Shown piece after piece: positions 228-17,315 of a DNA stretch of 18,683 nucleotides. The stretch covers positions 1 to 18,683 of the IMG/VR virus record IMGVR_UViG_2675903436_000002. One strand, given 5' to 3'. A program made the position numbers and the translations under genes. Positions within the stretch are counted from its first letter, which is position 1; the number at the start of each line of letters is the position of its first letter. This DNA is from a virus. Taxonomy: Duplodnaviria > Heunggongvirae > Uroviricota > Caudoviricetes. A model generated the notes under the pieces. The model was not told the origin of the DNA. It worked only from the letters and a program-made list of their open reading frames with translations, and did no database searches.

Positions 228-971
228 TTAGATTCCCTGGTGAGTAAGAATTTTACTTTCTGAACTCCTCTGAGAGTATTGACTTGGAGAAACACCAAAA
301 TAACGTCTAAATACATAAGTAAAGTATGAGACACTGGCATAACCACAGACCTTAGCTACTTTACTAATAGGATAACAACGAGTGCTGAGTAAATATTCAG
401 CCATTTGCATCCTCTCATCAAGTAGGATCTTACTGAATGATACCCCCTCTTCTTTCAATTTCCTCTTTAGTAAACTTTCGCTGAGATATAATCTTGATGA
501 TATATCCTTAAGATGCCATGGTGCAGATAAATCCGTATGAATAATCGTTTTAACTTTAGCCCCTGTGCTTTTCAAACATCCAAACAGAAATACTCCAAAT
601 TGTTTTTCAGAAGAAAATGCAGAGAGACATGTAAAAGCAATAGACTCATCAAAAATTTCTATATATTCAGCACAGTGATTAGCCCAACTAATTAATCCTT
701 TAATTAAACTGAAGTCAGCAAAGTTTATTTTTAAATAAGATGGATATTCCCTACAATCAGAAATATCCCTTAAGTTATTAGCTTTCAAATAGCGACTAAT
801 AAACTCAGCGCCAAAATCCGCCACTATCACTCTTTCAGGATATGTCAGGAAAAAATCTCTATAGCTAGAGTCGACAAGTACAGATAAACCTCTATCCAGA
901 AACACACTCTCTTTTCCAAAATAAACATCAAAGGACTCCAAAATCAATATAACTGAACATGTAGTTGCCAT
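228..971 (-). CDS. AraC-family transcriptional regulator, AppY/EnvY-like (prophage-associated)
   Basis: C-terminal about 100 aa carries the two AraC HTH motifs (LKDISSRLYLSESLLKRKLKEEGVSFSKIL... and ISKVAKVCGYASVSYFTYVFRRYFGVSPSQY), resembling the DLP12-end regulators AppY/EnvY from memory. Strongly AT-rich gene. ATG at 971 has a GGTGGA SD 5-6 nt upstream; the ORF track starts at a GTG at 980. Stop lies about 5 bp from the IS terminus. Confidence 0.8.
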   Translation of the reverse strand: MATTCSVILILESFDVYFGKESVFLDRGLSVLVDSSYRDFFLTYPERVIVADFGAEFISRYLKANNLRDISDCREYPSYLKINFADFSLIKGLISWANHCAEYIEIFDESIAFTCLSAFSSEKQFGVFLFGCLKSTGAKVKTIIHTDLSAPWHLKDISSRLYLSESLLKRKLKEEGVSFSKILLDERMQMAEYLLSTRCYPISKVAKVCGYASVSYFTYVFRRYFGVSPSQYSQRSSESKILTHQGI

Positions 972-1754
972 ATCATCCACCCAATTTAACTGAAACCAGG
1001 ATGAAGTATATGCATATAAAGTTCACTTTGCCAAACTTCAGTATAAAAAACCACATAAAAAATAGGGTGTGATAAAAAATACCGTAAAAATAAAGTAAAG
1101 GATTATAAATTCCGTTACAGTTACAAATGATACTAAAGAAACAATTCCTTAGAAAACCTTATTTACAGCCAATAAGTAAGACACTTATATGATATCAAGT
1201 TTTCATAAAATATAACTAGGCTAAATAGCTGCGCCTAATACCGCTACACTTTTGCCAGCCCATGTTTGCCTCCGGGTATTGACCCCTTCTCTACGCAACT
1301 TCAGTTCCCACCACCAACTTTGCGGCAGCTTTGTAGGATCAATGTCTAAAAGAATAATGGTGACCGATAAGAAAACGACTGAATAACTGCAGATTTTCGC
1401 TCGAAACCTTCCTGTCAGATCCATAGCGAATCAAGTGCTGAATGTCACAGTATCGAACAGAAAACAGTGACGATCTAACCCTTCAAGAATATTCTACGAT
1501 TGTTCTGTTTAGGAAAAGCAAGGCGGGAAGTCGGGAGATAAGTCATTGATAAAGTGGCGGAGAGAGGGGGATTTGCCCCCCCGGTAGAGTTGCCCCTACT
1601 CCGGTTTTCGAGACCGGTCCAATCATCAAACGAAACATAAAATTAGCTCACATTATGAGGAAAAGTATCTTTTTTGTACTATGTAAATTCAAAGGCTTAG
1701 CCTCATTTCTCCGATGGTTTTCTCAACACTACTGGTTGTGAGCCCTTGCAATGA

Positions 1755-2573
<819 letters not shown>

Positions 2574-2593
2574 GTCTTTAAGTGATAAGCATA

Positions 2594-2640
2594 AACCGCA
2601 GCACGTCATGCATACGTCGTGTCTGCGGTTTTTCTTTTTT
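2594..2640 (+). terminator. Rho-independent terminator downstream of the GIY-YIG gene
   Basis: 8-bp stem AACCGCAG / CTGCGGTT (2594..2601 with 2623..2630) around a structured loop, followed by TTTTTCTTTTTT. Confidence 0.6.
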
Positions 2641-2825
2641 GCTTACACGGTGTCTGGTTCTTCTGGCCACTCAATATCCGGTGCAGTTGATGTATCAACA
2701 CGGTTCAGCAACACCCGATACTTTTTCCATGCGGCCAGTAACGCTTTCTCTTCCTCCGTTGCGATTTCCAGCTCAACAACAGTCTGAACGTACCGGGAAC
2801 AGCCTCCTTCAGAGCTTGAAGGATA

Positions 2826-5800
2826 TCAATGTTCGCTTCCTGTTAACTGCCGGACAAGTGCAACCAGTTCGCTTACCTGATTTTCCAGAGTGCTGATCCG
2901 GGTGTCTGCTGTTGCCAGATTTTGACGTAGCGTTGTGTTTTCCTCTTCCAGCGCGGTAACGCGATCATCTGTTTCACGGGCGACCTGAACAAGTAAACCC
3001 GTCACGGCGGCGTAGTCAACATTAAGATAGCGCGTTTCTTCGCGTAGCTCGTTGCCGTCAACGGTCGGGCCTTGCAACTCTTCACCGTAATGAGTAAACG
3101 ATCCCACAGCTTCTGGTATCGCCTCCATTACTTCCTGTGCAATAACGCCAGCATAAGGCATCCCGTTTTCCCTGAGCGTGTAGGTGTATCCGTTCATTTT
3201 ACGGATTGCTTTCGTCGCGTCGCTGATAACGAGAATATCGTCTTTAAGGTCGCGGTCTGATGACTGATTCAGCGTTGTGCAATTAATAGCGCCATTTACA
3301 TCAAACAACTGGCCTGCTGACGTTTTTTGCGCATAAAACAGATACGCAGCAGACGTGCCAACCTCAAAAACGTTTTGTCGAGTACTGGAACCCCACACCC
3401 TGATACCAACTGGTAGTTCTGAATTACCTGAATTAAGTAAAGCAAAACGATTGCCAGTCCCTGTTTGTTTTCTAATTACTAAATCGGCAGTTGAGTTAAC
3501 CTCATCTTTGTTGATGGTTAGCGCCTGTGCTGTAGCACCGTTGACAGTACCGCTTAGTAGTTGCACCGCGCCATCATCGCCATTTAACAGCACTTGAGCG
3601 CTGCTTCTGTGGTTTTTAAGGCACAACATTTTTCCCGTGTTTTTCGATGTACCTACTGACCACGCCGAATTGGTTCCAGTGCTATCAACACCGCGCACAG
3701 CACAATTCATACTACTGTAATCTGACGTACTCCCCAGCACATCAACACGCCCGCCGCCTAATTTTGATGGAGTCGTCGAGGTTAACGACCTGACGGTTAC
3801 ATCCTGATTCCATCCTGAAACAACTACCTGACTCCACTCCGTCCAACTTCCATTGACAACAAAGCGAACGTATATGCGTTTTGTGTCGCTGCCAATCAGC
3901 GTTTGCATGATCGCATAATCTGAACCCGTAGTTTTACGAGTAGATTCTACACGTAGCAAAAAGTTACCGCTTACGCCGTCAGGCTTATTGGTAATATATG
4001 CACCACCTGCGACAGTTTTGCATTGATAGTATTTAACAGATCCAGCCACTGTATTAGCAATGATCAAGTCGTTTAAATCAATAGTCTTGTTGTCAATGGT
4101 TTCCGGCTCGATAGATCCCGCCATACCTGCGTTAAATGTGGCAAGGTCAGAAAAGGTTGTTTTACCGCCTACCGTCACCCCGCTATCGAGTTTTGCTTGT
4201 GTGATTACTTTGCTGTTTTTTGTGTGGTCAGAATAACTACCAAAATACAAATCACCGTCACCAGCTATACCTAGGTATTTTTGATCAACATCATCAACCT
4301 TAAACCCAATGGACAAGTTTTTAATTGTGTTGTTGCTCGTTAAAACCAAAGGCGTATGCTGAGATCCTTTGATGCTTACCGTAGTGTTATCGGAACTGGT
4401 GCTTGTGTTTGCAAATTCTGCGGTGGCTGCGCTGATTTTGTAAGTTATTTTTAGATTGCGGGCCTCAACCCTCCCGTCGTGGCGAACAATAAAATCACCA
4501 CTTGATTCACCTTTTGTGTTTTTCGCCCTGATGTGGATTTCGCCAAGTGATTCGTTGTTTTCAGGCGACCAAACAACGCCGCGCTCGCTTCCGTCGTTGT
4601 TCATGAACCACAGATGAGCGGTTCCTTTTGCTGATTTTAGCCTGATAGATGGCGTTTCTTTCAATATATCAAGATCACCAGACATAACATCGCCGGATTT
4701 TTTCACCTGCGCATCGTTCGTTACGTTGCCAAGTCCAACATCCGATTTCGACGGCTTGTTTGCCGAGCCGTATAGCTCATTGACGCTAAAAGTCCCGTTG
4801 TTAAGCCGGGCATCGTTGCCGGCATAGATCTTAATCTTCGCGGTTGAGTAGTCGATATTGATCGCTGACCACGTATCGCCGCACCGCGAGAATATACCAG
4901 AACCGTGGCTATAAATGGTCGCCGTGCTTCCGGTCGGCTTATCACCGCGCCAGAAATGACCACCTTTGTCACGCAGAGCTTTTAAGATCTCTACATCGCT
5001 CATCTTGCCGTTTGTTGATATCCCGCTACCGCCAAGACCGAAAGCGCCTGTAAGCATAGCATTAGAAAGACCCAAATCTGCTTTAGTCGGCTTGTTTAAC
5101 TGGTCGTAAATCCTTACAACGGGGCTTTCAACATATCCAGAAGGCGCGGCGGTTTGCTTAACAAATCCGTCTGGAATGTATAATTCCGTGCGTGCCGTCT
5201 GCGCCAGTACCGCAACCTTTGCGCCGTTGATAAATGCACGCTGGAAGGCCCAAACCTCAATAAAGCCATCATCTTTAACCAGGCCGTAACGCATTTGCAT
5301 GCTATTGATTAGCCCGGTTGGCCCTAAACGGCGTATACTCAGGTAATTCCGCTCTGCCTGCTCTTTTGCATCCTGCAAATCCTTCTGGCGTTTTTTCTCC
5401 TGAAGCTCGTTAAGACGCTGCTGATCGTACTCAACCTGAGAAGATGATGCCGTCCAGGGGAGTCTTTTCGCCCGCGACACTTTCTCCTGTAAAGCGGAAA
5501 TCTGTTCATCCAGCGAGTCTTCACGACCAATATTCATGGCCGCATCCCAGAAACGACTCCATAAATCAGACAGATACTTCAGCGTACTGCCCAGCGCATT
5601 GAGGTTATTATCAATATCCGCAGTACGCCGACCGGTTTCCTCTGCCAGTGCAGACATGGCTATCCGTGCCGCATCACTGGACCGCCCCTGTTCCCCAAGG
5701 ACGCGTATCTGCTCAAGCTGAGTGGCAGTAAGAAAATGCAGCTCATTGTCCAGAGCCTTCGCGGCATTTACAGGATCATCCTTCAGCCGCTTAAACTGAT

Positions 5801-6134
5801 TTATGGTATCGCTGACCGACTGGCCAACCGATCGCTCCATCTGTGCGGCAGCTCTCGCCACCATACCGATATCGTTTCCACGAAATGCACCACTCCCCAC
5901 CACCTGAGCCAGCGCACCGGCTGCAGCATGTTGCGTGATACCATTCCCGGAAATAGCACGACTGAGCGTCCACAGCTGCCCGGCAGTGACTCCGGCATAA
6001 TGCCCCGTCAGCGACAGCTGGCGGTTAAATTCTTCCCCCTCCTTCTGACCGTCATACCAGGCTTTACCCAGACCATAGACAGCCGCGGCAATACCGCCAA
6101 TAACCCCGCCAAGCATCATGCCTTTCGGTGACAT
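2826..6134 (-). CDS. Chimeric tail protein ORF: tape-measure (lambda H-like) N-terminal segment fused to a tail-fibre body with C-terminal intramolecular chaperone (peptidase S74-like) domain; probably a deletion-derived remnant
   Basis: First about 230 aa (hydrophobic GMMLGGVIGGIAAAVYGLGKAWYDG, then ...LSRA...DAAMNIGRED... coiled-coil) align by eye with lambda H residues about 130-350. The middle is Ser/Thr/Gly/Asn-rich with fibre-like motifs (SDVGLGNVTNDAQVKKSGDVMSGDLDI). The last 144 aa start with SDRDLKDDILVISD..., the autoproteolytic chaperone signature of endosialidase/T5 pb1-type fibres. ORF begins 6 nt after the truncated terminase stop with no RBS of its own; an ATG at 6134 and a TTG at 6137 are both possible starts. 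Confidence 0.6.
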   Translation of the reverse strand: MSPKGMMLGGVIGGIAAAVYGLGKAWYDGQKEGEEFNRQLSLTGHYAGVTAGQLWTLSRAISGNGITQHAAAGALAQVVGSGAFRGNDIGMVARAAAQMERSVGQSVSDTINQFKRLKDDPVNAAKALDNELHFLTATQLEQIRVLGEQGRSSDAARIAMSALAEETGRRTADIDNNLNALGSTLKYLSDLWSRFWDAAMNIGREDSLDEQISALQEKVSRAKRLPWTASSSQVEYDQQRLNELQEKKRQKDLQDAKEQAERNYLSIRRLGPTGLINSMQMRYGLVKDDGFIEVWAFQRAFINGAKVAVLAQTARTELYIPDGFVKQTAAPSGYVESPVVRIYDQLNKPTKADLGLSNAMLTGAFGLGGSGISTNGKMSDVEILKALRDKGGHFWRGDKPTGSTATIYSHGSGIFSRCGDTWSAINIDYSTAKIKIYAGNDARLNNGTFSVNELYGSANKPSKSDVGLGNVTNDAQVKKSGDVMSGDLDILKETPSIRLKSAKGTAHLWFMNNDGSERGVVWSPENNESLGEIHIRAKNTKGESSGDFIVRHDGRVEARNLKITYKISAATAEFANTSTSSDNTTVSIKGSQHTPLVLTSNNTIKNLSIGFKVDDVDQKYLGIAGDGDLYFGSYSDHTKNSKVITQAKLDSGVTVGGKTTFSDLATFNAGMAGSIEPETIDNKTIDLNDLIIANTVAGSVKYYQCKTVAGGAYITNKPDGVSGNFLLRVESTRKTTGSDYAIMQTLIGSDTKRIYVRFVVNGSWTEWSQVVVSGWNQDVTVRSLTSTTPSKLGGGRVDVLGSTSDYSSMNCAVRGVDSTGTNSAWSVGTSKNTGKMLCLKNHRSSAQVLLNGDDGAVQLLSGTVNGATAQALTINKDEVNSTADLVIRKQTGTGNRFALLNSGNSELPVGIRVWGSSTRQNVFEVGTSAAYLFYAQKTSAGQLFDVNGAINCTTLNQSSDRDLKDDILVISDATKAIRKMNGYTYTLRENGMPYAGVIAQEVMEAIPEAVGSFTHYGEELQGPTVDGNELREETRYLNVDYAAVTGLLVQVARETDDRVTALEEENTTLRQNLATADTRISTLENQVSELVALVRQLTGSEH

Positions 6135-6142
6135 CAATGTGT

Positions 6143-6538
6143 CTATCCATCCGGCACGGTTACCGCCGCACTGCTTCTGAACGTTCTGTCGAGGCGCTTT
6201 TTAGAATGCTCGCGGGCCTTATCTTCGGTCATCTGCACAACGAGCATGTCCGAAGGATCGCAAACGATGGTATAGACAATCCATCCATCGATCAGACCAA
6301 TGGTCTTCCCTGTTCGCGCAGGACCAACAAAAATCACCGCATCGTATTCACGCGATGCCAGGCAGTTCATGGGCTCAATGATGTAGGGTGTCAGTTCAGG
6401 ATCCCATGGCACCGAGTTACCAGCCCCCTTGGGAACACGCATGAATTTTTTAACAGCCTCCGAAATCGGCATGCGACGTGGTGGGGAAAATCCTGCCGAT
6501 ATGTCCCTTCCCAAATTTCGGGCTGATGAAAAACCCAT
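6143..6538 (-). pseudogene. Terminase large subunit (GpA family), N-terminal 131-codon fragment
   Basis: Contains a Walker-A-like VGPARTGKT and an N-terminal pattern comparable to lambda gpA (VKSARVGYSK region). Strong SD AGGAGG before the ATG at 6538. ORF stops after 131 codons, where intact GpA-type terminases run about 640 aa. Start is positioned directly after the small-terminase stop. Confidence 0.6.
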
Positions 6539-6546
6539 TATTCCTC

Positions 6547-7074
6547 CTAGAGACTCTCTCCTTCCTCATCAGGAATTAATTCAGCAGCACAAGCCTCGTA
6601 GGATTTTTCCTGAAGAGTGTATCGCAGGTCATCAATGGCCTGCTGTACAACGCCGACGGCCTGAGGAGTCAGGGCGCAATCGCGTTCAAGAACATCCGGA
6701 ATTGTCTCCAGAACCTGGACGACAGCCTTTCTCATGGACGAATAGACGATGACTACTTCATCAACGGGGATGAGTTTTCGCTGCTCCTTTTCCAGCTTGA
6801 TCCTTTCATTTTCAGACTGGTACCAATCCTTTCTCTCTTTCGGCTCCATACGGGATGGATCATGAACAGAGTCTGCTGCCTCATGCTTCACACTAAACAG
6901 GGCAGACCCGACATGCTGCAGGGCGTAAACGGGGTTCCCCCTGACAGTCGCTGCCACAGGAGTGTTGGCCGCGAGGAGCCGTTTTTTTACTGTGTCCCGG
7001 TGAAGCCCAAAGGCCTCGGCGATTTTAAAAACACTCCAGTAATAAGCATCACCGATCCCGCTCACATTTGACAT
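6547..7074 (-). CDS. Terminase small subunit (Nu1/NohD-like DNA packaging protein)
   Basis: N-terminal HTH-like segment (WSVFKIAEAFGLHRDTVKKRL); sits immediately upstream of the large-terminase fragment and about 180 bp downstream of a cos-like site. GGAG SD before the ATG at 7074; the ORF track starts 4 codons earlier at 7086. Confidence 0.7.
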   Translation of the reverse strand: MSNVSGIGDAYYWSVFKIAEAFGLHRDTVKKRLLAANTPVAATVRGNPVYALQHVGSALFSVKHEAADSVHDPSRMEPKERKDWYQSENERIKLEKEQRKLIPVDEVVIVYSSMRKAVVQVLETIPDVLERDCALTPQAVGVVQQAIDDLRYTLQEKSYEACAAELIPDEEGESL

Positions 7075-7249
7075 AAGCAACTCCATCTGGCAGGTGAAAA
7101 TCAGGTTTATTTATATATTTCAATTAATTGCAAACTGGTCTAATGACAGGGAGAAAAAAATATTGTACAGGTAAAAAGAGAAATAACTTTTAATTATCAA
7201 TAAATTACCTAACATGCTGCCGCCGCCATGGAAATGCAAAAACTAGCCT

Positions 7250-7275
7250 TTTTCCGCGACGCTCCCGCCCCGTGG
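7250..7275 (-). other. cos-like site (cosN homolog) of the prophage
   Basis: Minus-strand sequence ACGGGGCGGGAGCGTCGCGG resembles lambda cosN (ACGGGGCGGCGACCTCGCGG, from memory), at the expected distance upstream of the small terminase gene. Confidence 0.45.
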
Positions 7276-7826
7276 CAGGCCCCCCCACCGGGAGGACCCG
7301 TCAGCCTGACAGCCATGACGAACGTCTGATACAGCCCTTGCATGAATGGCATCGGGATAATCCAGAAAGGAATAGCATCGACCCACAAAAATCTGTGTGA
7401 GTGTCCTGTTTCTTCCCCCCCCCCGCACAGGACTGGCGAGCATGAGGGACAACCCCGCGAACCATAACCGCGCTGATGACAGGACTGGCCCGGCTTGTAT
7501 TGCTTCCAGCCTTCGCTTTTGTGGCTTTTGCAATAGCCTGACGGATCTGTGGTGGTATTGCGGTAGCCGCGAACACGGCAGGTTTTTGGGGTTCGTGGGG
7601 GCATATGTACTCCAATGAAGAAGCCACCAACATAGCCTCCTCCATTCATCGTGAAACTATTTTCATCTACCCAGTAATGAATTCTTTGAAGAGTTGTGAT
7701 CAATACAACTCGCTAATGGAGAGGCTTGTCTCACACGTGAGACAAGCTTCCTGTTTGATTTACTGGACAGTATAGGAGGACAGAATGCCTTCCTCACTCG
7801 AATAACATCAATTAAGGAGGTTCAAC

Positions 7827-7949
7827 ATGTTTCATTCCACAAGTCATCAGGCTGTAATTATGGCAGCATCAGTTTGTGCCAAAGACCTTTTCCGCTTCAC
7901 TTTGAGCCTGATTCATTTCTACCTGACCGGCTCGCCTCTATCTTTTTAA
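7827..7949 (+). CDS. Small hypothetical ORF (40 aa) upstream of bor
   Basis: ATG preceded by a near-consensus SD AAGGAGG at 7 nt spacing; product MFHSTSHQAVIMAASVCAKDLFRFTLSLIHFYLTGSPLSF. Not in the ORF track because it is under 60 aa. No homolog recognised. Confidence 0.2.
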   Translation: MFHSTSHQAVIMAASVCAKDLFRFTLSLIHFYLTGSPLSF

Positions 7950-8129
7950 TCCCCGCTTTATCCAAATTGCATTGCCATAATGCCGACAACACACTGACAT
8001 TCAAATCCAGACTACCTCCAATAGTCTGACCGTACACCTATATAGTTTTAATTTTCATCAATCCATTTAACTATCGTTTAATTGTTGTCACATAGGATTC
8101 TGCTGTTTTTAACAATACAGGATAATAAG

Positions 8130-8423
8130 ATGAAAAAAATGTTGTTTTCTGCCGCTCTGGCAATGCTTATTACAGGATGTGCTCAACAGACGTTTACTGT
8201 TGGAAACAAACCGACAGCAGTAACACCAAAGGAAACCATCACCCATCATTTCTTCGTTTCGGGAATTGGACAGGAGAAAACTGTTGATGCAGCCAAAATT
8301 TGTGGCGGCGCAGAAAATGTTGTTAAAACAGAAACCCAGCAAACATTCGTAAATGGATTGCTCGGTTTTATTACTTTAGGCATTTATACTCCGCTGGAAG
8401 CGCGTGTGTATTGCTCACAATAA
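8130..8423 (+). CDS. bor: Bor lipoprotein (serum-resistance, Bor/Iss family)
   Basis: MKKMLFSAALAMLITGCAQQTFTV... with lipobox LITGC; near-identical to lambda Bor as I remember it. Convergent with Rz as in lambda. The ORF track start at 8082 is an upstream in-frame alternative. Confidence 0.9.
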   Translation: MKKMLFSAALAMLITGCAQQTFTVGNKPTAVTPKETITHHFFVSGIGQEKTVDAAKICGGAENVVKTETQQTFVNGLLGFITLGIYTPLEARVYCSQ

Positions 8424-8454
8424 TTGCATGAGTTGCCCATCGATATGGGCAGCT

Positions 8455-8916
8455 CTATCTGCACTGCTCATTAATATACTTCTGGGTTCCTTCCAGTTGT
8501 TTTTGCATAGTGATCAGCCTCTCTCTGAGGGTGAAATAATCCCGTTCAGCGGTGTCTGCCAGTCGGGGGGAGGCTGCATTATCCACGCCGGAGGCGGTGG
8601 TGGCTTCACGCACTGACTGACAGACTGCTTTGATGTGCAACCGACGACGACCAGCGGCAACATCATCACGCAGAGCATCATTTTCAGCTTTCGCATCAGC
8701 TAACTCCTTCGTGTATTTTGCATCGAGCGCAGCAACATCACGCTGACGCATCTGCATGTCAGTAATTGCCGCGTTCGCCAGCTTCAGTTCTTTGGCATTT
8801 TTGTCGCGCTGGGCTTTATAGGTAATGGCGTTATCACGGTAATGATTAACAGCCCATGACAGGCAGACGATGATGCAGATAACCAGAGCGGAGATAATCG
8901 CGGTTACTCTGTTCAT
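8455..8916 (-). CDS. rzpD: Rz i-spanin (inner-membrane spanin subunit)
   Basis: [21 protein letters not shown]... N-terminal TM followed by a charged coiled-coil; matches DLP12 RzpD / phage 21 Rz from memory. ATG at 8916 overlaps the endolysin stop (ATGA). Confidence 0.85.
8514..8696 (-). CDS. rzoD: Rz1 o-spanin lipoprotein, embedded in the +1 frame of Rz
   Basis: [23 protein letters not shown]... with lipobox VVGC and a proline-rich stretch ([13 protein letters not shown]), entirely inside Rz in a different frame. Confidence 0.75.
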
Positions 8917-9410
8917 TGCTGACCCCACAAACAGATTTCACGCTCAATCTCACGACGAGTCATGAGACCTTTCCATTGCTTACCGCCAGCATATGTCCAG
9001 CGACGTAACTGATCACATGCGCCTTTGATATCGCCCTGGTTTATTTTGCGAAGAAGCGTCGATGTTCTGAAATTGCCAGCACCCACGTTGTAAACGAATG
9101 AGTAAAGAGCGCCGCGCGTTGTTTCCGGTATATCGACTTCGATGTATGGGTTAATTTGTCTGGCGACAGTGGCAAGGTCTTTATTCAAGAGTGCTTTGCA
9201 TTCTGCTTTGGTATACGTTTTACCGAGCATGATGTCTTTTCCTGTATGCCCGTGACATACGGTCCATACACCAACAATATCTTTGTATGGTATGTAGCTG
9301 ACACCTTCCAGACCATCGTTACCACTTGGGCCAGTGATTAACACTGATGCTATAGCAATTGCTCCGCCACCAATAGCAGCAGCAACTGCTTTTCGTAATG
9401 ATGGAGGCAT
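8913..9410 (-). CDS. rrrD: SAR endolysin (T4-lysozyme-like muramidase with signal-anchor-release N-terminus)
   Basis: N-terminal Gly/Ala-rich weakly hydrophobic SAR segment ([20 protein letters not shown]) followed by a lysozyme-like domain; matches DLP12 RrrD / phage 21 R from memory. Start overlaps the holin stop. Confidence 0.9.
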
Positions 9411-9625
9411 TATTCACCTCTCGCAGCCTTGCGCTTATCTTCTTTAATCTTGAAATAAAGGTTTGTCAGGTACGTCAGCAAGCCAAATACCAGACTACCC
9501 AGCACACCTATTGCCGCCCACTGTGAGGGCGTGACTTTATCGAGCAGCTGTAAAAACCAGTAACCGGCACTACCTGCTGAGGTGCCATAGGCGACACCCG
9601 TTGTTAACTTATCCATGGATTTCAT
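9410..9625 (-). CDS. essD: Class II holin (phage 21 S / EssD-like) with dual-start motif
   Basis: [26 protein letters not shown]... with two TM segments; Met1-Lys-Ser-Met4 dual start typical of holin/antiholin pairs; SD GAGGTGG upstream of the ATG at 9625. The ORF track start at 9670 is 15 codons further upstream. Confidence 0.85.
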
Positions 9626-10214
9626 AACCCCACCTCGCAGACAAAGCGGGTGTAAATTGAGGGAATACAACGTATCGCAAAAAAGCAGAAACGTAACAGA
9701 CTCGGAGTCAGTGAATAACTCAGGTATTGAGTTATCAGCTAATATCGAGACTCAAAAAATGGAAAAACCAGCTCGACGGCGGGTTTAAGCTGTGTGACGA
9801 AGTAACCACTCTTAACAGCATAACCAATTTTTTACGTACGTAAACCACTGAATGATATTTATGAGAATGCTACCGAGTGTTCAAAACACCACCACAAATA
9901 CATAAGAAAACCTCAACAAATAACTAACAAATAATTTCCAGTGTTATTTTTAGCCGATTTAAATTGAATCTTCAAATTATAGAGCACTTATAAATAACAG
10001 CCGTTAATATAAATTGGCTAATAGATTTATTTTTATTCAGCCAAGAGCTATGAATAGGATTCGATAGAAAAAAGTTCAGATAAAAATAGAGATCTACTTC
10101 ACAAATCAAACGAGAAACCAAAACTTACATCTTGAAATAATCACATTGATTAGATGAATATTTATCGCGCAGTGACATCATTTTTTAATAATAGTTCAAA
10201 AAAAAGGGCTCACG

Positions 10215-11312
10215 ATGAAAAAATTAACAGTGGCAATTTCTGCTGTAGCTGCATCAGTACTGATGGCGATGTCTGCTCAGGCAGCTGAAATTTATAATAA
10301 AGACAGTAACAAGCTGGATCTGTACGGGAAAGTTAATGCTAAGCACTACTTCTCCTCTAATGATGCAGATGATGGTGATACTACTTATGCCCGTCTTGGC
10401 TTCAAAGGTGAAACCCAAATCAACGATCAACTGACTGGTTTCGGTCAGTGGGAATATGAATTCAAAGGCAACCGCGCTGAATCTCAAGGTTCCTCCAAAG
10501 ATAAAACCCGTCTTGCCTTCGCTGGCCTGAAATTCGGTGACTACGGCTCCATCGATTACGGCCGTAACTACGGTGTAGCATACGACATCGGTGCGTGGAC
10601 TGACGTCCTGCCAGAATTCGGTGGTGACACTTGGACTCAAACCGACGTGTTCATGACTCAACGTGCAACTGGTGTTGCAACCTATCGTAACAACGACTTC
10701 TTTGGTCTGGTTGATGGTCTGAACTTTGCTGCTCAGTACCAAGGCAAAAACGATCGTAGCGATTTCGATAACTACACTGAAGGTAACGGTGATGGCTTCG
10801 GTTTCTCTGCTACCTATGAATACGAAGGATTCGGTATCGGTGCAACTTATGCGAAATCTGATCGTACCGACACTCAAGTTAATGCAGGGAAAGTTCTTCC
10901 TGAAGTATTTGCTTCCGGTAAAAATGCAGAAGTTTGGGCCGCAGGTCTGAAATATGACGCTAACAACATTTACCTGGCCACTACCTATTCTGAAACCCAG
11001 AATATGACTGTATTTGCTGATCACTTCGTTGCTAATAAAGCCCAAAACTTCGAAGCTGTTGCACAATATCAGTTCGATTTCGGTCTGCGTCCGTCCGTTG
11101 CTTACCTGCAATCTAAAGGTAAGGATCTTGGAGTATGGGGCGATCAGGACTTAGTCAAATATGTTGATGTAGGTGCAACCTATTACTTCAACAAAAATAT
11201 GTCTACTTTCGTTGATTACAAAATCAACCTGCTTGACAAAAATGACTTCACTAAAGCACTCGGTGTAAGCACTGATGACATCGTTGCTGTAGGTCTGGTT
11301 TACCAGTTCTAA
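10215..11312 (+). CDS. nmpC: Prophage-encoded OmpC-family general porin (NmpC/Lc/OmpD-like), apparently intact
   Basis: 365 aa with signal peptide [23 protein letters not shown], porin motifs and a C-terminal ...VGLVYQF ending in Phe. Located between Q and the holin on the opposite strand, as nmpC is in DLP12 and lc in PA-2. Confidence 0.9.
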
Positions 11313-11478
11313 TCTGATTACGAAAAAGATATGTTGCGGGAGGCGTTGCCTCCCCAACATATAAGTGGCTCCCTCAAGCCACTTCCTTTAGAAGCACAAC
11401 CTTGCTTCTAACTATATAAACCTTCTGTTATATATTACCCTTTATTTTTGGGGGCGTCTCAACGCCCCATTTTTAATA
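11312..11478 (+). ncRNA. Possible IpeX-like small RNA / porin 3' UTR hairpin cluster ending in a rho-independent terminator
   Basis: Four consecutive hairpins: 11338..11354 (GGGAGGC/GCCTCCC), 11363..11384 (AAGTGGCT/AGCCACTT), 11389..11410 (TAGAAGCA/TGCTTCTA) and 11450..11468 (GGGGGCG/CGCCCC) followed by ATTTTTAATAATTTTT. In DLP12 the sRNA IpeX maps to the nmpC 3' end (from memory); boundaries here are guesses. Confidence 0.3.
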
Positions 11479-12757: not shown

Positions 12758-12920
12758 GATTCCTCCTTGCTGCCAGTCGCAACCATTTTTTATCAACCAG
12801 GCTGGCGGTATATCCGAGCAGTGTTGGTATTTCGGAAGGCTTCAGCTCCGGTTTACGCTTACGACGATTTGGTACTCTGTAGATGTGTCCGTTCATGACA
12901 CGAATAAGCGGTGTAGCCAT
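12750..12920 (-). CDS. ninE: NinE-like small protein (56 aa)
   Basis: Manual translation [56 protein letters not shown]; basic KRKP...W..WLR pattern like lambda NinE; start overlaps the ninB-like stop (ATGA). Not in the ORF track. Confidence 0.5.
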   Translation of the reverse strand: MATPLIRVMNGHIYRVPNRRKRKPELKPSEIPTLLGYTASLVDKKWLRLAARRNHG

Positions 12921-13375
12921 TACGCCTCCTGCTTGTCACGGAGCAGCTGGAACTCGCAGCTCTGCGGAATAGTCAGGTGGCAGCCAATATTCATCGCCCA
13001 GGCTTCAACCTTACACAGGAAGACATACATCTCTCCGGTATCAAGATCGGAGGTATGGCGTAACGACTGGATCGTAGTGATTTCGCCGGTTACGACATCA
13101 ACCAGGTCCTTGGTTTCATAACCGAGGTATGTGTGTTTGAGAGCATCTTTTACCCATGCTGCAGTAGCGAACGATTTCCCCCTGCTGATGAGGTACTCAC
13201 TGATTTCGCTGTACCACATGTGGCTGAGTGCATTCTGGGAAAGACTGCGTCTTTCGCGCCACGGTTTAAGCGCCATGCGAAAGCATTTGCCGTCCTCCAG
13301 ATAAGGCTGGATCTGCTGACCGATAGCGGTGAAGTTACCGCGATGCAATTTGATACCGTCTTGTGGGAGGTTCAC
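12920..13375 (-). CDS. ybcN: NinB-family recombination protein (YbcN-like)
   Basis: 151 aa; ...[22 protein letters not shown]... parallels the NinB RSLDQNRKLW motif. GTG start at 13375 with GGAGGTG SD. Confidence 0.8.
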
Positions 13376-13539: not shown

Positions 13540-13908
13540 TTGATTATGGAAAATCAATCAAGCTATGTTTCATCGGCGAGGTCATCATCTGTGACAATCA
13601 TGAGGTTAAAGAATGAAATAATGTTTATCTATGACAAGGATGAAGCTGAGCGCATTGTCGAAAATACCGCATACACTGCAGAACGTCAGCCGGAACGCGA
13701 CATCACTCCGGTTAACGATGAAACCATGCAGGAGATTAACACTCTGCTGATTGCCCTGGATAAAACATGGGATGACGACTTATTGCCGCTCTGTTCCCAG
13801 ATATTTCGCCGCGACATTCGCGCATCGTCAGAACTGACACAGGCCGAAGCAGTGAAAGCTCTTGGATTCCTGAAACAGAAAGCCACTGAGCAGAAGGTGG
13901 CAGCATGA
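13540..13908 (+). pseudogene. bet: 5'-truncated bet (Red-beta) remnant; only the C-terminal about 95 codons are Bet-derived
   Basis: From about 13627 the translation IYDKDEAERIVENTAYTAERQPERDITPVNDETMQEINTLLIALDKTWDDDLLPLCSQIFRRDIRASSELTQAEAVKALGFLKQK..EQKVAA matches the lambda Bet C-terminus; the upstream 29 codons of the ORF are unrelated sequence. Confidence 0.7.
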
Positions 13909-14585
13909 CACCGGACATTATACTGCAGCGTACCGGGATCGACGTGAGAGCTGTCGAACAGGGGGATGATGCATGGCACAAATTACGGCTCGGCGTCATC
14001 ACCGCTTCAGAAGTTCACAACGTGATAGCAAAGCCCCGATCAGGAAAGAAGTGGCCTGACATGAAAATGTCCTACTTCCACACCCTGCTGGCTGAGGTTT
14101 GCACCGGTGTGGCTCCGGAAGTTAACGCTAAAGCGCTGGCCTGGGGAAAACAGTACGAGAACGACGCCAGAACCCTGTTTGAGTTCACTTCCGGCGTAAA
14201 TGTTATTGAATCCCCGATCATCTATCGCGACGAAAGTATGCGCACCGCCTGCTCTCCCGATGGTTTATGCAGTGACGGCAATGGCCTTGAGCTGAAATGC
14301 CCGTTTACCTCCCGGGATTTCATGAAGTTCCGGCTCGGTGGTTTCGAGGCCATAAAGTCGGCTTACATGGCCCAGGTGCAGTACAGCATGTGGGTGACGC
14401 GAAAAGATGCCTGGTACTTTGCCAACTATGACCCGCGCATGAAGCGTGAAGGCCTGCATTATGTCGTGGTTGAGCGGGATGAAAAGTACATGGCGAATTT
14501 TGACGAGATGGTGCCGGAGTTCATCGAAAAAATGGACGAGGCACTGGCTGAAATTGGTTTTGTATTTGGGGAGCAATGGCGATGA
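13905..14585 (+). CDS. exo: Lambda-type exonuclease (Red-alpha)
   Basis: 226 aa [40 protein letters not shown]..., near-identical to lambda Exo as remembered; start overlaps the bet stop (ATGA). Confidence 0.9.
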
Positions 14586-15863: not shown

Positions 15864-16185
15864 GGCCTGTCAGTTTCTTAAGATATCCAGACCAACCGCC
15901 ACCAACTGGATACGAACAGGCCGCCTACAGGCAACACGTAAAGATCCAACCAAGCCAAAATCTCCTTACCTCACAACACGGCAAGCCTGCATTGCGGCGC
16001 TTCAGTCTCCGCTGCATACTGTCCAGGTGAGCGCGGGTGATGGCATAACAGAGGAAAGAAAATGTCACTCTTCCGCAGAAGTGAAATATGGTACGCCAGT
16101 TTCACATTGCCGAACGGTAAAAGATTTAAACAGTCTCTTGGAACAAAGGACAAAAGGCAGGCGACAGAGCTCCATGACAAGCTAA
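15835..16185 (+). CDS. xis: Excisionase (Xis, P22-type, winged-helix)
   Basis: [31 protein letters not shown]... HTH typical of Xis/AlpA-like excisionases; 116 aa; AGAGG SD; 3' end overlaps the int start. Confidence 0.7.
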
Positions 16186-17225
16186 AGGCTGAAGCATGGC
16201 GGGTCAGCAAACTTGGTGAAATACCTGATATAACGTTCGAGGAAGCGTGTGTCAGGTGGCTTGAAGAGAAAGCACATAAAAAATCACTGGACGATGACAA
16301 AAGCCGGATCGGATTCTGGCTTCAACATTTCGCAGGAATGCAACTAAGAGACATTACTGAATCAAAAATTTATTCAGCAATGCAGAAAATGACGAACCGG
16401 CGTCATGAGGAAAACTGGAAACTCAGGGCAGAAGCATGCAGAAAAAAAGGGAAACCTGTTCCAGAATACACGCCAAAACCAGCGTCCGTTGCAACGAAGG
16501 CTACGCATCTTTCATTTATAAAGGCCCTACTAAGAGCCGCAGAGCGTGAATGGAAAATGCTGGATAAGGCACCAATTATTAAAGTGCCCCAACCAAAGAA
16601 TAAACGGATCCGCTGGCTGGAGCCCCATGAAGCACAAAGACTGATTGATGAATGTCCGGAGCCATTAAAGTCTGTTGTTGAATTTGCACTGGCAACAGGC
16701 CTAAGACGCTCGAACATCATCAACCTTGAATGGCAACAAATAGATATGCAGCGCCGGGTGGCATGGATAAACCCGGAAGAGAGTAAATCAAACCGCGCAA
16801 TTGGCGTTGCGCTGAATGATACTGCATGTCGCGTACTGAAAAAACAAATCGGGAATCATCACCGTTGGGTATTTGTGTACAAGGAAAGCTGTACCAAACC
16901 AGACGGAACGAAAGCGCCAGCAGTAAGGAAGATGCGGTATGACGCAAACACAGCCTGGAAAGCGGCGCTGAGACGGGCTGGTATTGATGATTTCAGATTT
17001 CACGACTTGAGACACACCTGGGCAAGTTGGCTGGTTCAAGCCGGAGTCCCGTTGTCAGTGTTACAGGAAATGGGAGGCTGGGAGTCTATCGAAATGGTTC
17101 GTCGATATGCTCACCTTGCACCTAATCACCTTACCGAACACGCACGGCAAATAGACTCGATCCTGAACCCATCGGTCCCAAATTTGTCCCAGTCAAAAAA
17201 TAAGGAAGGTACTAATGATGTGTAA
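16062..17225 (+). CDS. int: Tyrosine integrase, P22-type (thrW-specific)
   Basis: 387 aa [41 protein letters not shown]... with C-terminal [39 protein letters not shown] catalytic region; very close to P22 Int as remembered; ends 14 nt from the tRNA 3' end. Confidence 0.92.
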
Positions 17226-17239
17226 CTTATTGATTTAAA

Positions 17240-17315
17240 TGGTGCCGATAATAGGAGTCGAACCTACGACCTTCGCATTACGAATGCGCTGCTCTACCAA
17301 CTGAGCTATATCGGC
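17240..17315 (-). tRNA. thrW: tRNA-Thr (anticodon CGU), thrW-like; prophage attachment site at its 3' end
   Basis: Reverse complement GCCGATATAGCTCAGTTGGTAGAGCAGCGCATTCGTAATGCGAAGGTCGTAGGTTCGACTCCTATTATCGGCACCA folds as a canonical 76-nt tRNA with anticodon CGT and encoded CCA. Confidence 0.95.

Follow-up and report, generated by a model that had tools for sequence, protein, structure and literature searches.

The cryptic prophage DLP12 of E. coli K-12 retains a packaging-gene remnant made up of nohD, aaaD' and tfaD'. DLP12 has R, Rz, cos, nu1 and A in common with lambda; recombination of incoming lambdoid phages with the K-12 cryptic prophages Rac, Qin and DLP12 has been experimentally shown (PMC3945230). 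Among tail genes, intact side-tail-fibre (Stf) proteins of the S74 type are annotated as 'prophage tail fiber N-terminal domain-containing protein / peptidase S74'.

The window analysed here (the whole stretch of DNA, 18,683 nt) is, to judge from its sequence, a deletion remnant of a defective (cryptic) lambdoid prophage of E. coli. It contains an open reading frame of 1103 codons in which a piece of a tape-measure protein (TMP) gene, H', runs into a piece of a side-tail-fibre gene, stf'. This frame is very probably a scar of prophage decay left by two internal deletions and not a new kind of tail protein.

Composition of the element and of the chimeric frame

The element is inserted at thrW, with proA beyond. 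The order is proA, tRNA-Thr, int ... exo, a bet remnant, ninB ... Q, porin, S, R, Rz, bor, small terminase and A' (Table 1). The phage genome end (cos) maps beside the small terminase gene, at about 7270/7271. In comparison with an intact prophage at thrW, no repressor, replication, portal, capsid, tube or tip genes are present among the open reading frames of the window. M, L, K, I, J and lom, which are expected between H and the fibre gene, are absent. The first-pass annotation had noted the loss of tail tip and assembly genes at this point; that gap is real but the losses are wider, as all head and tail-shaft genes are missing too.

Table 1. Features of the chimeric locus and its surroundings (positions in the window)
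Feature	Position	Strand	Basis or remark
tfa (tail-fibre-assembly) gene remnant, 3' end, just downstream of fibre stop	2643-2777	minus	pseudogene annotation in relatives
Side-tail-fibre-derived segment, codons 414-1252 of 1252-codon Stf	2826-5346	minus	blastn, BLASTP, tblastn, Pfam
Chimeric open reading frame, 1103 codons	2826-6137	minus	first starts TTG 6137 and ATG 6134
Peptidase_S74 intramolecular chaperone domain, residues 960-1011 of the frame	3105-3260	minus	Pfam, 46 bits (cut-off 22)
Junction 1, H' to stf'	5344-5346	minus	TTA in both parents; three-way alignment
Tape-measure-derived segment, codons ~273-546 of 1021-codon mEp460/Tritos-type TMP	5344-6162	minus	blastn, BLASTP, Pfam, PHROGs
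Truncated large terminase subunit A', 131 codons	6143-6538	minus	Pfam GpA_ATPase and blastn
Junction 2, terminase A' to H'	6160-6162	minus	TAA in both parents; three-way alignment and blastn coordinates
Junction 30-mers			GCAGAGCGGAATTACCTGAGTATACGCC and AGAAGCAGTGCGGCGGTAACCGTGCCGGATGGATAG
Small terminase subunit (DUF1441 / Nu1 analogue), apparently intact	6547-7086	minus	
Integrase	16062-17225		
tRNA-Thr (thrW)	17240-17315		

The terminase block is 99.0-99.3% identical to phages cdtI and Tritos (blastn). A' consists of about 126 native codons followed by about five out-of-frame codons derived from the tape measure and a TAG stop (6145-6143); Pfam GpA_ATPase is matched at profile positions 2-87 of 247 only.

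The 1103-codon frame had been reported without a strand; it is present, on the minus strand. On the plus strand, translation of these coordinates yields nothing but stops. Read from stop to stop, it is free of stops from 6200. Its start codons TTG/ATG (6137/6134) correspond to internal tape-measure codons, Leu282 and Met283 (translation and BLASTP). The frame has neither a native start nor a native ribosome-binding site or promoter; this follows from junction 2, which is out of frame and falls 25 nt upstream of the first start codon.

Residues 1-265 of the frame are identical to residues 282-546 of the 1021-aa TMP of the mEp460/Tritos/cdtI type, which has a TMP_2 domain (BLASTP). DNA identity to this type is 99.4-99.8% (blastn): 99.76% to positions 12001-12819 of L002, from which it differs by two synonymous and no non-synonymous changes, and 99.39% to positions 10528-11346 of phage Tritos (L008). 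Pfam PF06791 (TMP_2) matches residues 1-145 (5703-6137) with 152 bits against a cut-off of 30.2. As the matched profile positions are 69-208 of 208, the domain is incomplete on its N-terminal side. PHROGs assigns residues 1-259 to tape-measure families (phrog_20739 at 1e-150, phrog_24 at 1e-111) and the remainder to tail-fibre families; the phrog_24 match spans profile positions 310-560 of 1151, far short of the whole family profile. The first-pass annotation had seen the middle of a tape measure in the N-terminal 230 or so residues; the similarity is significant and the identification holds, but the piece is 265 residues long.

In contrast to the intact TMP, the frame keeps 26% of the protein and both ends are gone. 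Nor is the segment flanked by the G/T and M/L genes: its neighbours are the truncated terminase gene A' upstream and fibre sequence directly downstream. The piece cannot measure a tail, and the element has no tail genes left.

Residues 265-1103 align to residues 414-1252 of P0007, a 1252-aa fibre (BLASTP, tblastn). This segment is shared with S74-type lambdoid Stf proteins (P0007, phage Ayreon, vB_EcoS-640R1) at 95% protein identity and up to 99.5% DNA identity; the fibre block reaches the 99.5% with the E. coli elppa6 prophage (blastn). Relative to L001, the fibre part has 12 synonymous and two non-synonymous differences. The fibre body is retained together with the C-terminal chaperone, as had been read from the sequence at first pass; the Peptidase_S74 match is above its cut-off (Table 1). 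An SSDRDLK stretch stands at the start of the S74 match, and a coiled-coil tail follows the domain. The stretch presumably contains a putative catalytic Ser...Lys self-cleavage pair, by analogy with studies of endosialidase and T5 pb1.

Unlike the intact Stf, the frame has tape-measure sequence in place of fibre residues 1-413. The attachment domain PF08400, which is N-terminal in intact P0007 (residues 1-134), is missing from the frame (Pfam, both proteins) because the alignment begins only at fibre residue 414. The tfa remnant is common to relatives: a pseudogene is annotated at the equivalent position in L001 and L005. No decay since the fusion is visible in either part of the frame.

Junctions and proposed course of decay

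Three collinear blocks with sharp edges lie in phage gene order: fibre (2401-5346, 99.5%), TMP (5344-6162, 99.76%) and terminases (6160-7270, 99.0%; blastn). In three-way alignments, parent identity switches at each junction within three common nucleotides, i.e. a 3-nt microhomology. The calculated chance of an overlap of at least 3 nt at both junctions is about 0.003. At junction 1, ...AERN-Y of the TMP meets Y-LSIRR... of the fibre without a shift of frame, on a Tyr codon that is TAT in the former and TAC in the latter. Alignment to intact relatives therefore places the break between H and the fibre gene to within three nucleotides, and reveals a second break further upstream. The single H-fibre fusion described in the first-pass annotation is present, but the terminase A'-H' junction was not part of that description.

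The first-pass annotation had also offered a very recent deletion as the event that joined H to a fibre gene. The sharp break, the 3-nt microhomology, the identities of 99.5-99.8% and the almost exclusively synonymous differences all point that way. Random sequence cannot by chance give an open frame as long as 1103 codons. Here, two genuine coding pieces were joined in frame, so the length itself needs no special cause. Read-through over 3.3 kb is explained by an H'-stf' joint that happened in frame and by the near identity of both pieces to working genes; the open frame is due to a chance in-frame fusion (1 in 3) and recency.

In the genome of Tritos, a functional-type phage, the A block lies at 1-1111 and the H block at 10528-11346; these coordinates give an A-to-H deletion of about 9.4 kb. 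Tritos has the terminase and the tape measure but a different fibre, and was rejected as single parent. The elppa6 thrW prophage was likewise rejected: its fibre is present, but it has a different, lambda-type terminase and tape measure. Sequence comparison suggests that the parent is a mosaic absent from the collections searched. As the sequences searched include no intact parent that has all three blocks together, the lengths given for the deletions, including the one from H to stf, are estimates, and so is the order in which the events took place.

The ancestor would have been a lambdoid prophage at thrW by proA, with a cdtI/Tritos-type terminase, a 1021-aa TMP of the mEp460/Tritos type and a 1252-aa S74-type fibre. 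Two internal illegitimate deletions, each at 3 nt of microhomology, would have removed about 18 kb of head and tail genes. One, of about 9.4 kb, would run from large terminase codon ~127 to TMP codon ~273, removing portal, capsid, connector, tail tube and G/T. The other, of about 8.5-9 kb, would run from TMP codon 547 to fibre codon 413, removing M, L, K, I, J, probably lom, and the virion-attachment domain. Both the mechanism and the recency of these deletions are likely rather than observed features. Read in this way, the locus would be an example of prophage decay resolved to the base pair: two deletions of about 9 kb with 3-nt microhomology, one in frame and one out.

The fusion is absent elsewhere in the collections searched. 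In a search of 5.8 billion protein clusters, the best 120 of 4,406 matches all cover at most 76% of the query, in the fibre part only. No record was found of the exact product of the frame with any of five alternative starts, or of the A' product. When 200-nt queries over each junction were compared with 5,426 complete E. coli genomes, half of the query was matched each time; the intact junctions occur in none of the 5,426. Neither junction was found in the phage collection, and junction k-mers gave zero matches in GTDB species-representative genomes (both junctions) and JGI metagenomes (junction 1). The fusion thus appears, within these collections, to be private to one strain, as a pseudogene-like scar.

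That neither junction occurs in any other public sequence searched could also mean that mis-assembly, a chimeric contig or an in-silico splice produced the junctions, with no deletions in the chromosome behind them. This is very unlikely. The three blocks are ordered and oriented as in an intact phage genome, and the overlaps of 3 nt, while usual for illegitimate recombination, are much shorter than the k-mer of any assembler. In addition, the host and prophage flanks are continuous and match the thrW locus of other strains, where comparable decay variants are found.

Expression and possible function

The frame starts 6-9 nt after the A' stop codon and points the same way as Q, S, R, Rz, the small terminase gene and A'. 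A promoter scan found no sigma-70-like promoter on the minus strand between 2400 and 9800. Terminator-like matches are at chance level, and the promoter and terminator scan says nothing firm on expression. The candidate starts have weak Shine-Dalgarno pairing (-3.2 to -5.7 kcal/mol, compared with -10.2 for A'). Most likely, the frame has no protein function; at most, read-through of the late operon would give small amounts of a product. Since the frame is intact, with a complete S74 chaperone and the receptor-binding fibre body, such a product could physically form a trimer.

Could the fusion have been exapted as a functional host protein? Translation from Met2 or Met8 would allow the glycine-zipper of the TMP to anchor the coiled coil and the trimeric fibre in the inner membrane; roles could include superinfection exclusion or envelope binding. 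The open frame, the intact S74 domain and the N-terminal hydrophobic segment (MMLGGVIGGIAAAVYGLGKAW) are in keeping with such a protein, and the site just past the A' stop, in late-operon orientation, could permit coupled translation. However, the fusion is private to one sequence and occurs in none of the collections searched; it lacks a native start and a promoter-like site, and its Shine-Dalgarno sequence is weak. Recency fully accounts for its openness, and unrelated fusions of the same fibre in other strains fit random decay. Exaptation is accordingly rated very improbable. Its most specific form, in which ribosomes on a Q-dependent late transcript would re-initiate past the A' stop and yield a membrane-anchored, S74-matured fibre trimer used by the host (e.g. 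for exclusion of related phages or envelope binding), is highly improbable; if true, a chimeric gene would here be seen at the moment of its birth.

The first-pass suggestion of a natural hybrid, taken here as a single protein in which a working phage combines tape measure and fibre by design, is almost certainly wrong: it has the in-frame architecture alone in its favour, whereas no full-length homologues occur among the best 120 of the 4,406 cluster matches and no intact phage in the collections searched has the same architecture, the TMP part begins and ends mid-protein with its Pfam domain cut at profile position 69, the fibre part lacks the attachment domain, the element has no portal, capsid, tube or tip genes, and the gene next upstream, for a terminase, breaks off at codon ~126.

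Decay by two deletions is the preferred reading, and the correct annotation would then be a fused gene remnant (H'-stf') rather than a tape measure, a fibre or a new tail protein; beyond this, the frame has little import. A realistic role of the region is as near-identical DNA for recombination with incoming lambdoid phages. The fibre sequence in it (2.5 kb) still matches working genes at 99.5% and is a possible donor for host-range recombination with such phages.

Comparison with other decayed prophages

The thrW locus carries different deletion variants in other strains. In P0041 and P0052, the same fibre body is joined to a truncated L and a truncated Lom, respectively; in L005, the fibre is cut at codon 253 and adjoins a J remnant. 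The thrW variants and fibre fusions (E. coli EC21Z-078, SCU-118 and elppa6; P0041 and P0052) share with the present element the locus and the right-end cargo. In these, too, independent deletions have led to truncated or fused tail genes (J' beside stf 253-1252, L'-fibre, Lom'-fibre). However, their breakpoints and partners are different, and none has the H'-stf' or the A'-H' junction.

Like DLP12, the present element is a lambdoid prophage cut down to Q, porin, S, R, Rz, bor, cos, small terminase and a truncated large terminase, and in both the truncated terminase is joined straight to remnants of the tail-fibre region. The present element differs from DLP12 in three respects. Firstly, it is located at thrW/proA and not at the DLP12 site. 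Secondly, it has an 819-nt internal tape-measure piece between A' and the fibre. Thirdly, its remnant of the fibre gene measures 2.5 kb and happens to continue the reading frame of the tape-measure piece. In both elements, the genes are near-identical to phage genes and usable as recombination substrates.

Make-up of the fusion ORF

The fusion ORF (H'-stf') joins part of a tape-measure gene (H) in frame to part of a side tail fibre gene (stf). Pfam places TMP_2 on residues 1-145 (152 bits; cut-off 30.2), the match taking in only profile positions 69-208 of 208, and Peptidase_S74 on residues 960-1011 (46 bits; cut-off 22). In PHROGs, residues 1-259 fall into tape-measure families, with phrog_24 matched over profile positions 310-560 of 1151; the rest of the ORF falls into tail-fibre families. 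Both searches bear out the content proposed in the first-pass annotation, a tape-measure N-terminal part followed by a fibre with a chaperone; the strand, which is minus, had been overlooked. The frame is free of stops from 6200, stop to stop. A plus-strand reading of the same interval was rejected, its translation being riddled with stops.

Protein alignment shows no difference between residues 1-265 and residues 282-546 of a 1021-aa tape measure. Residues 265-1103 match residues 414-1252 of P0007, an intact 1252-aa S74-type side tail fibre, without gaps and at 95% identity. Residues 1-134 of P0007 are assigned to the 'prophage tail fibre N-terminal' domain (PF08400), which a Pfam search of the fusion ORF did not find. 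In a Megablast comparison with complete E. coli genomes and GenBank phages, the region divides into three blocks which overlap by at most 3 nt.

Table. Features of the fusion region and of the surrounding element
Feature	Position	Strand	Remarks
AraC-family regulator	228-980	-	right-end cargo (228-2573)
LEM-3-like GIY-YIG protein	1800-2573	+	right-end cargo
Side tail fibre and downstream flank	2401-5346		best match 99.5%, E. coli elppa6 prophage
tfa C-terminal remnant	2643-2777	-	directly downstream of S74-chaperone fibre; common to elppa6 and EC21Z-078, annotated there as pseudogene
Fusion ORF	2826-6137	-	1103 codons; TTG start, then immediately ATG (ORF listing and translation)
Junction 1 (H'-stf')	5344-5346		shared TTA (three-way alignment)
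Tape-measure gene piece	5344-6162		best match 99.76%, phage mEp460_4F5
Junction 2 (A'-H')	6160-6162		shared TAA (three-way alignment)
Small and large terminase genes	6160-7270		best match 99.0%, phage cdtI
164-codon ORF	7209-7703	-	between cos and bor
bor/iss lipoprotein gene	8082-8423	+	after Rz
Porin gene	10215-11312	+	between Q and lysis genes
122-codon ORF	13540-13908	+	between ninB-like (12920-13375, -) and exo (13905-14585, +)
Integrase gene	16062-17225		beside tRNA-Thr
tRNA-Thr	17240-17315		end of window, with proA

Junctions and extent of the inferred deletions

At both junctions, identity switches from one parent to the other inside three common nucleotides. At junction 1, tape-measure sequence ...GAG CGG AAT TA(T) meets fibre sequence (T)AC CTG AGT ATA...; the Tyr codons of the two parents are merged and the frame is therefore kept. 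This fusion joint had been recognised in the first-pass annotation; the upstream junction revealed by the three-way alignment had not. Junction 2 connects large terminase codon ~126, out of frame, with tape-measure codon ~273. Beyond the joint, the terminase reading continues for about five codons to a TAG stop (6145-6143), giving A', a truncated large terminase gene of 131 codons whose GpA_ATPase domain ends at profile position 87 of 247 (Pfam). The tape-measure frame first offers start codons at TTG 6137 and ATG 6134, which correspond to Leu282 and Met283 inside the tape measure; consequently, the fusion ORF has no native start.

By our calculation, an overlap of at least 3 nt has a chance of about 5% at a random joint and about 0.3% at both joints. 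The 3-nt overlaps fit microhomology-mediated illegitimate recombination; an assembler mis-join could not be produced by a 3-nt overlap.

In phage Tritos, a single genome of 46 kb contains the terminase block at positions 1-1111 and the tape-measure block at 10528-11346; this spacing gives an A'-H' deletion of about 9.4 kb, which would have taken out the rest of the terminase gene and the portal, capsid, connector, tail tube and G/T genes. For the H'-stf' deletion, comparison with the gene layouts of Tritos and the intact elppa6 thrW prophage suggests about 8.5-9 kb. This would have removed the distal 475 tape-measure codons, M, L, K, I, J and the first 413 fibre codons; lom was probably also lost.

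One in three arbitrary deletions fuses the genes on either side in frame; whether the frame then stays open is a matter of time alone. Compared with elppa6, the fibre part shows 12 synonymous and 2 non-synonymous changes; compared with mEp460_4F5, the tape-measure part shows 2 and none. Such a synonymous excess is the mark of selection acting on the intact parental genes prior to the deletion. The same counts show no decay after the fusion, and the open frame does not need selection on the fusion.

Distribution, expression and role

In a protein database of 5.8 billion clusters, no full-length homologue was found: the best 120 of 4,406 significant matches extend over no more than 76% of the query, namely the fibre part. 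The exact product with any of five plausible starts is absent from the records by exact look-up. No match spans either junction in 5,426 complete E. coli genomes or GenBank phages, and junction k-mers were not found in GTDB representative genomes or JGI metagenomes. A recent deletion fusing H to a fibre gene, as first suggested, is supported by the sharp joint, the 3-nt overlap and the near-identity to both parents. The other suggestion, a natural hybrid tail protein, is contradicted by the lack of a full-length homologue and of the features of functional family membership. The fusion is a strain-private case of a well-known process.

Other fusions of the same fibre body occur. Database protein P0041 joins it to a truncated minor tail protein L and P0052 to a truncated Lom (1-179); fusion of this fibre to whatever lies upstream after a deletion is thus a recurrent accident. 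At the same locus, EC21Z-078 retains fragments of J, K, T, V and protease, its J remnant adjoining fibre codons 253-1252 (L005 25740-26372 and 22826-25555, in that strain's coordinates); the tail remnants in SCU-118 form an unrelated set. The elppa6 prophage is nearly complete. Its 1252-codon fibre aligns in one frame and is annotated as two pieces, which places an in-frame stop at ~9056-9093 (L001, the elppa6 prophage). This stop lies upstream of the deletion breakpoint in the window, and elppa6 is the closest relative by DNA identity; if the window's ancestor had the stop, the deletion took it away.

A consensus scan of the minus strand (2400-9800) found no sigma-70-like promoter. At the candidate starts, the predicted Shine-Dalgarno pairing is weak, with energies of -3.2 to -5.7 kcal/mol; that of A' reaches -10.2. 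The A' stop codon precedes the ORF by 6-9 nt, and the ORF is oriented like the late operon; a Q-dependent transcript might therefore allow coupled translation at a low level. Any product would have neither a fibre attachment domain nor a virion to attach to, and a protein function is highly improbable. A role at the DNA level is more realistic. Recombination with lambda has been shown for near-identical stf/tfa genes in two cryptic prophages, Rac and Qin, and for R-Rz-cos-nu1-A in DLP12 (PMC3945230); by analogy, the 2.5 kb of fibre sequence could be a recombination substrate for lambdoid phages.

The element and known systems

The window terminates in proA and tRNA-Thr. Leftwards from the integrase gene lie exo, the 122-codon ORF, ninB-like, ybcO-like, rusA, Q, porin, S, R, Rz, bor/iss, small terminase, A', the fusion ORF, the tfa remnant, the GIY-YIG gene and the AraC-family regulator. 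The window's genes include none for a repressor, replication, capsid or tail.

The 122-codon ORF ends in what we take to be the C-terminus of lambda Bet; its N-terminal part appears unrelated, and a Pfam search gave no match. It is probably a third deletion scar, with loss of the rest of bet, gam, N, the immunity region and the replication genes. The tfa remnant looks like an older mosaic joint, an S74-type fibre end having replaced one of stf-tfa type. The right-end cargo slot is variable: in elppa6 (L001 2750-6074), it includes a retron Ec67-type reverse transcriptase beside the same GIY-YIG gene. The slot could be a hot spot for defence genes or morons.

Window position ~7270/7271 corresponds to the ends of the linear Tritos genome: 7270 equals Tritos position 1, and 7271-7467 matches its right end at 77%. 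It seems that the cos region is kept beside the intact small terminase gene, despite the truncated large subunit. The 164-codon ORF has no Pfam match and is probably non-coding debris; in SCU-118, the annotation shows HNH endonuclease and Rz1 pseudogenes in the equivalent region.

The porin and bor/iss genes lie on the opposite strand to the late operon, as do nmpC and borD in DLP12, and are likely reasons for the host to retain this part of the element. As a cryptic prophage, the element is of the same type as DLP12. By sequence, the fusion ORF has matches in the tape-measure and S74-fibre families, but it lacks what those proteins need to work, namely full length, own start, genomic neighbours and N-terminal attachment domain; it has all the features of a deletion remnant of a defective prophage.
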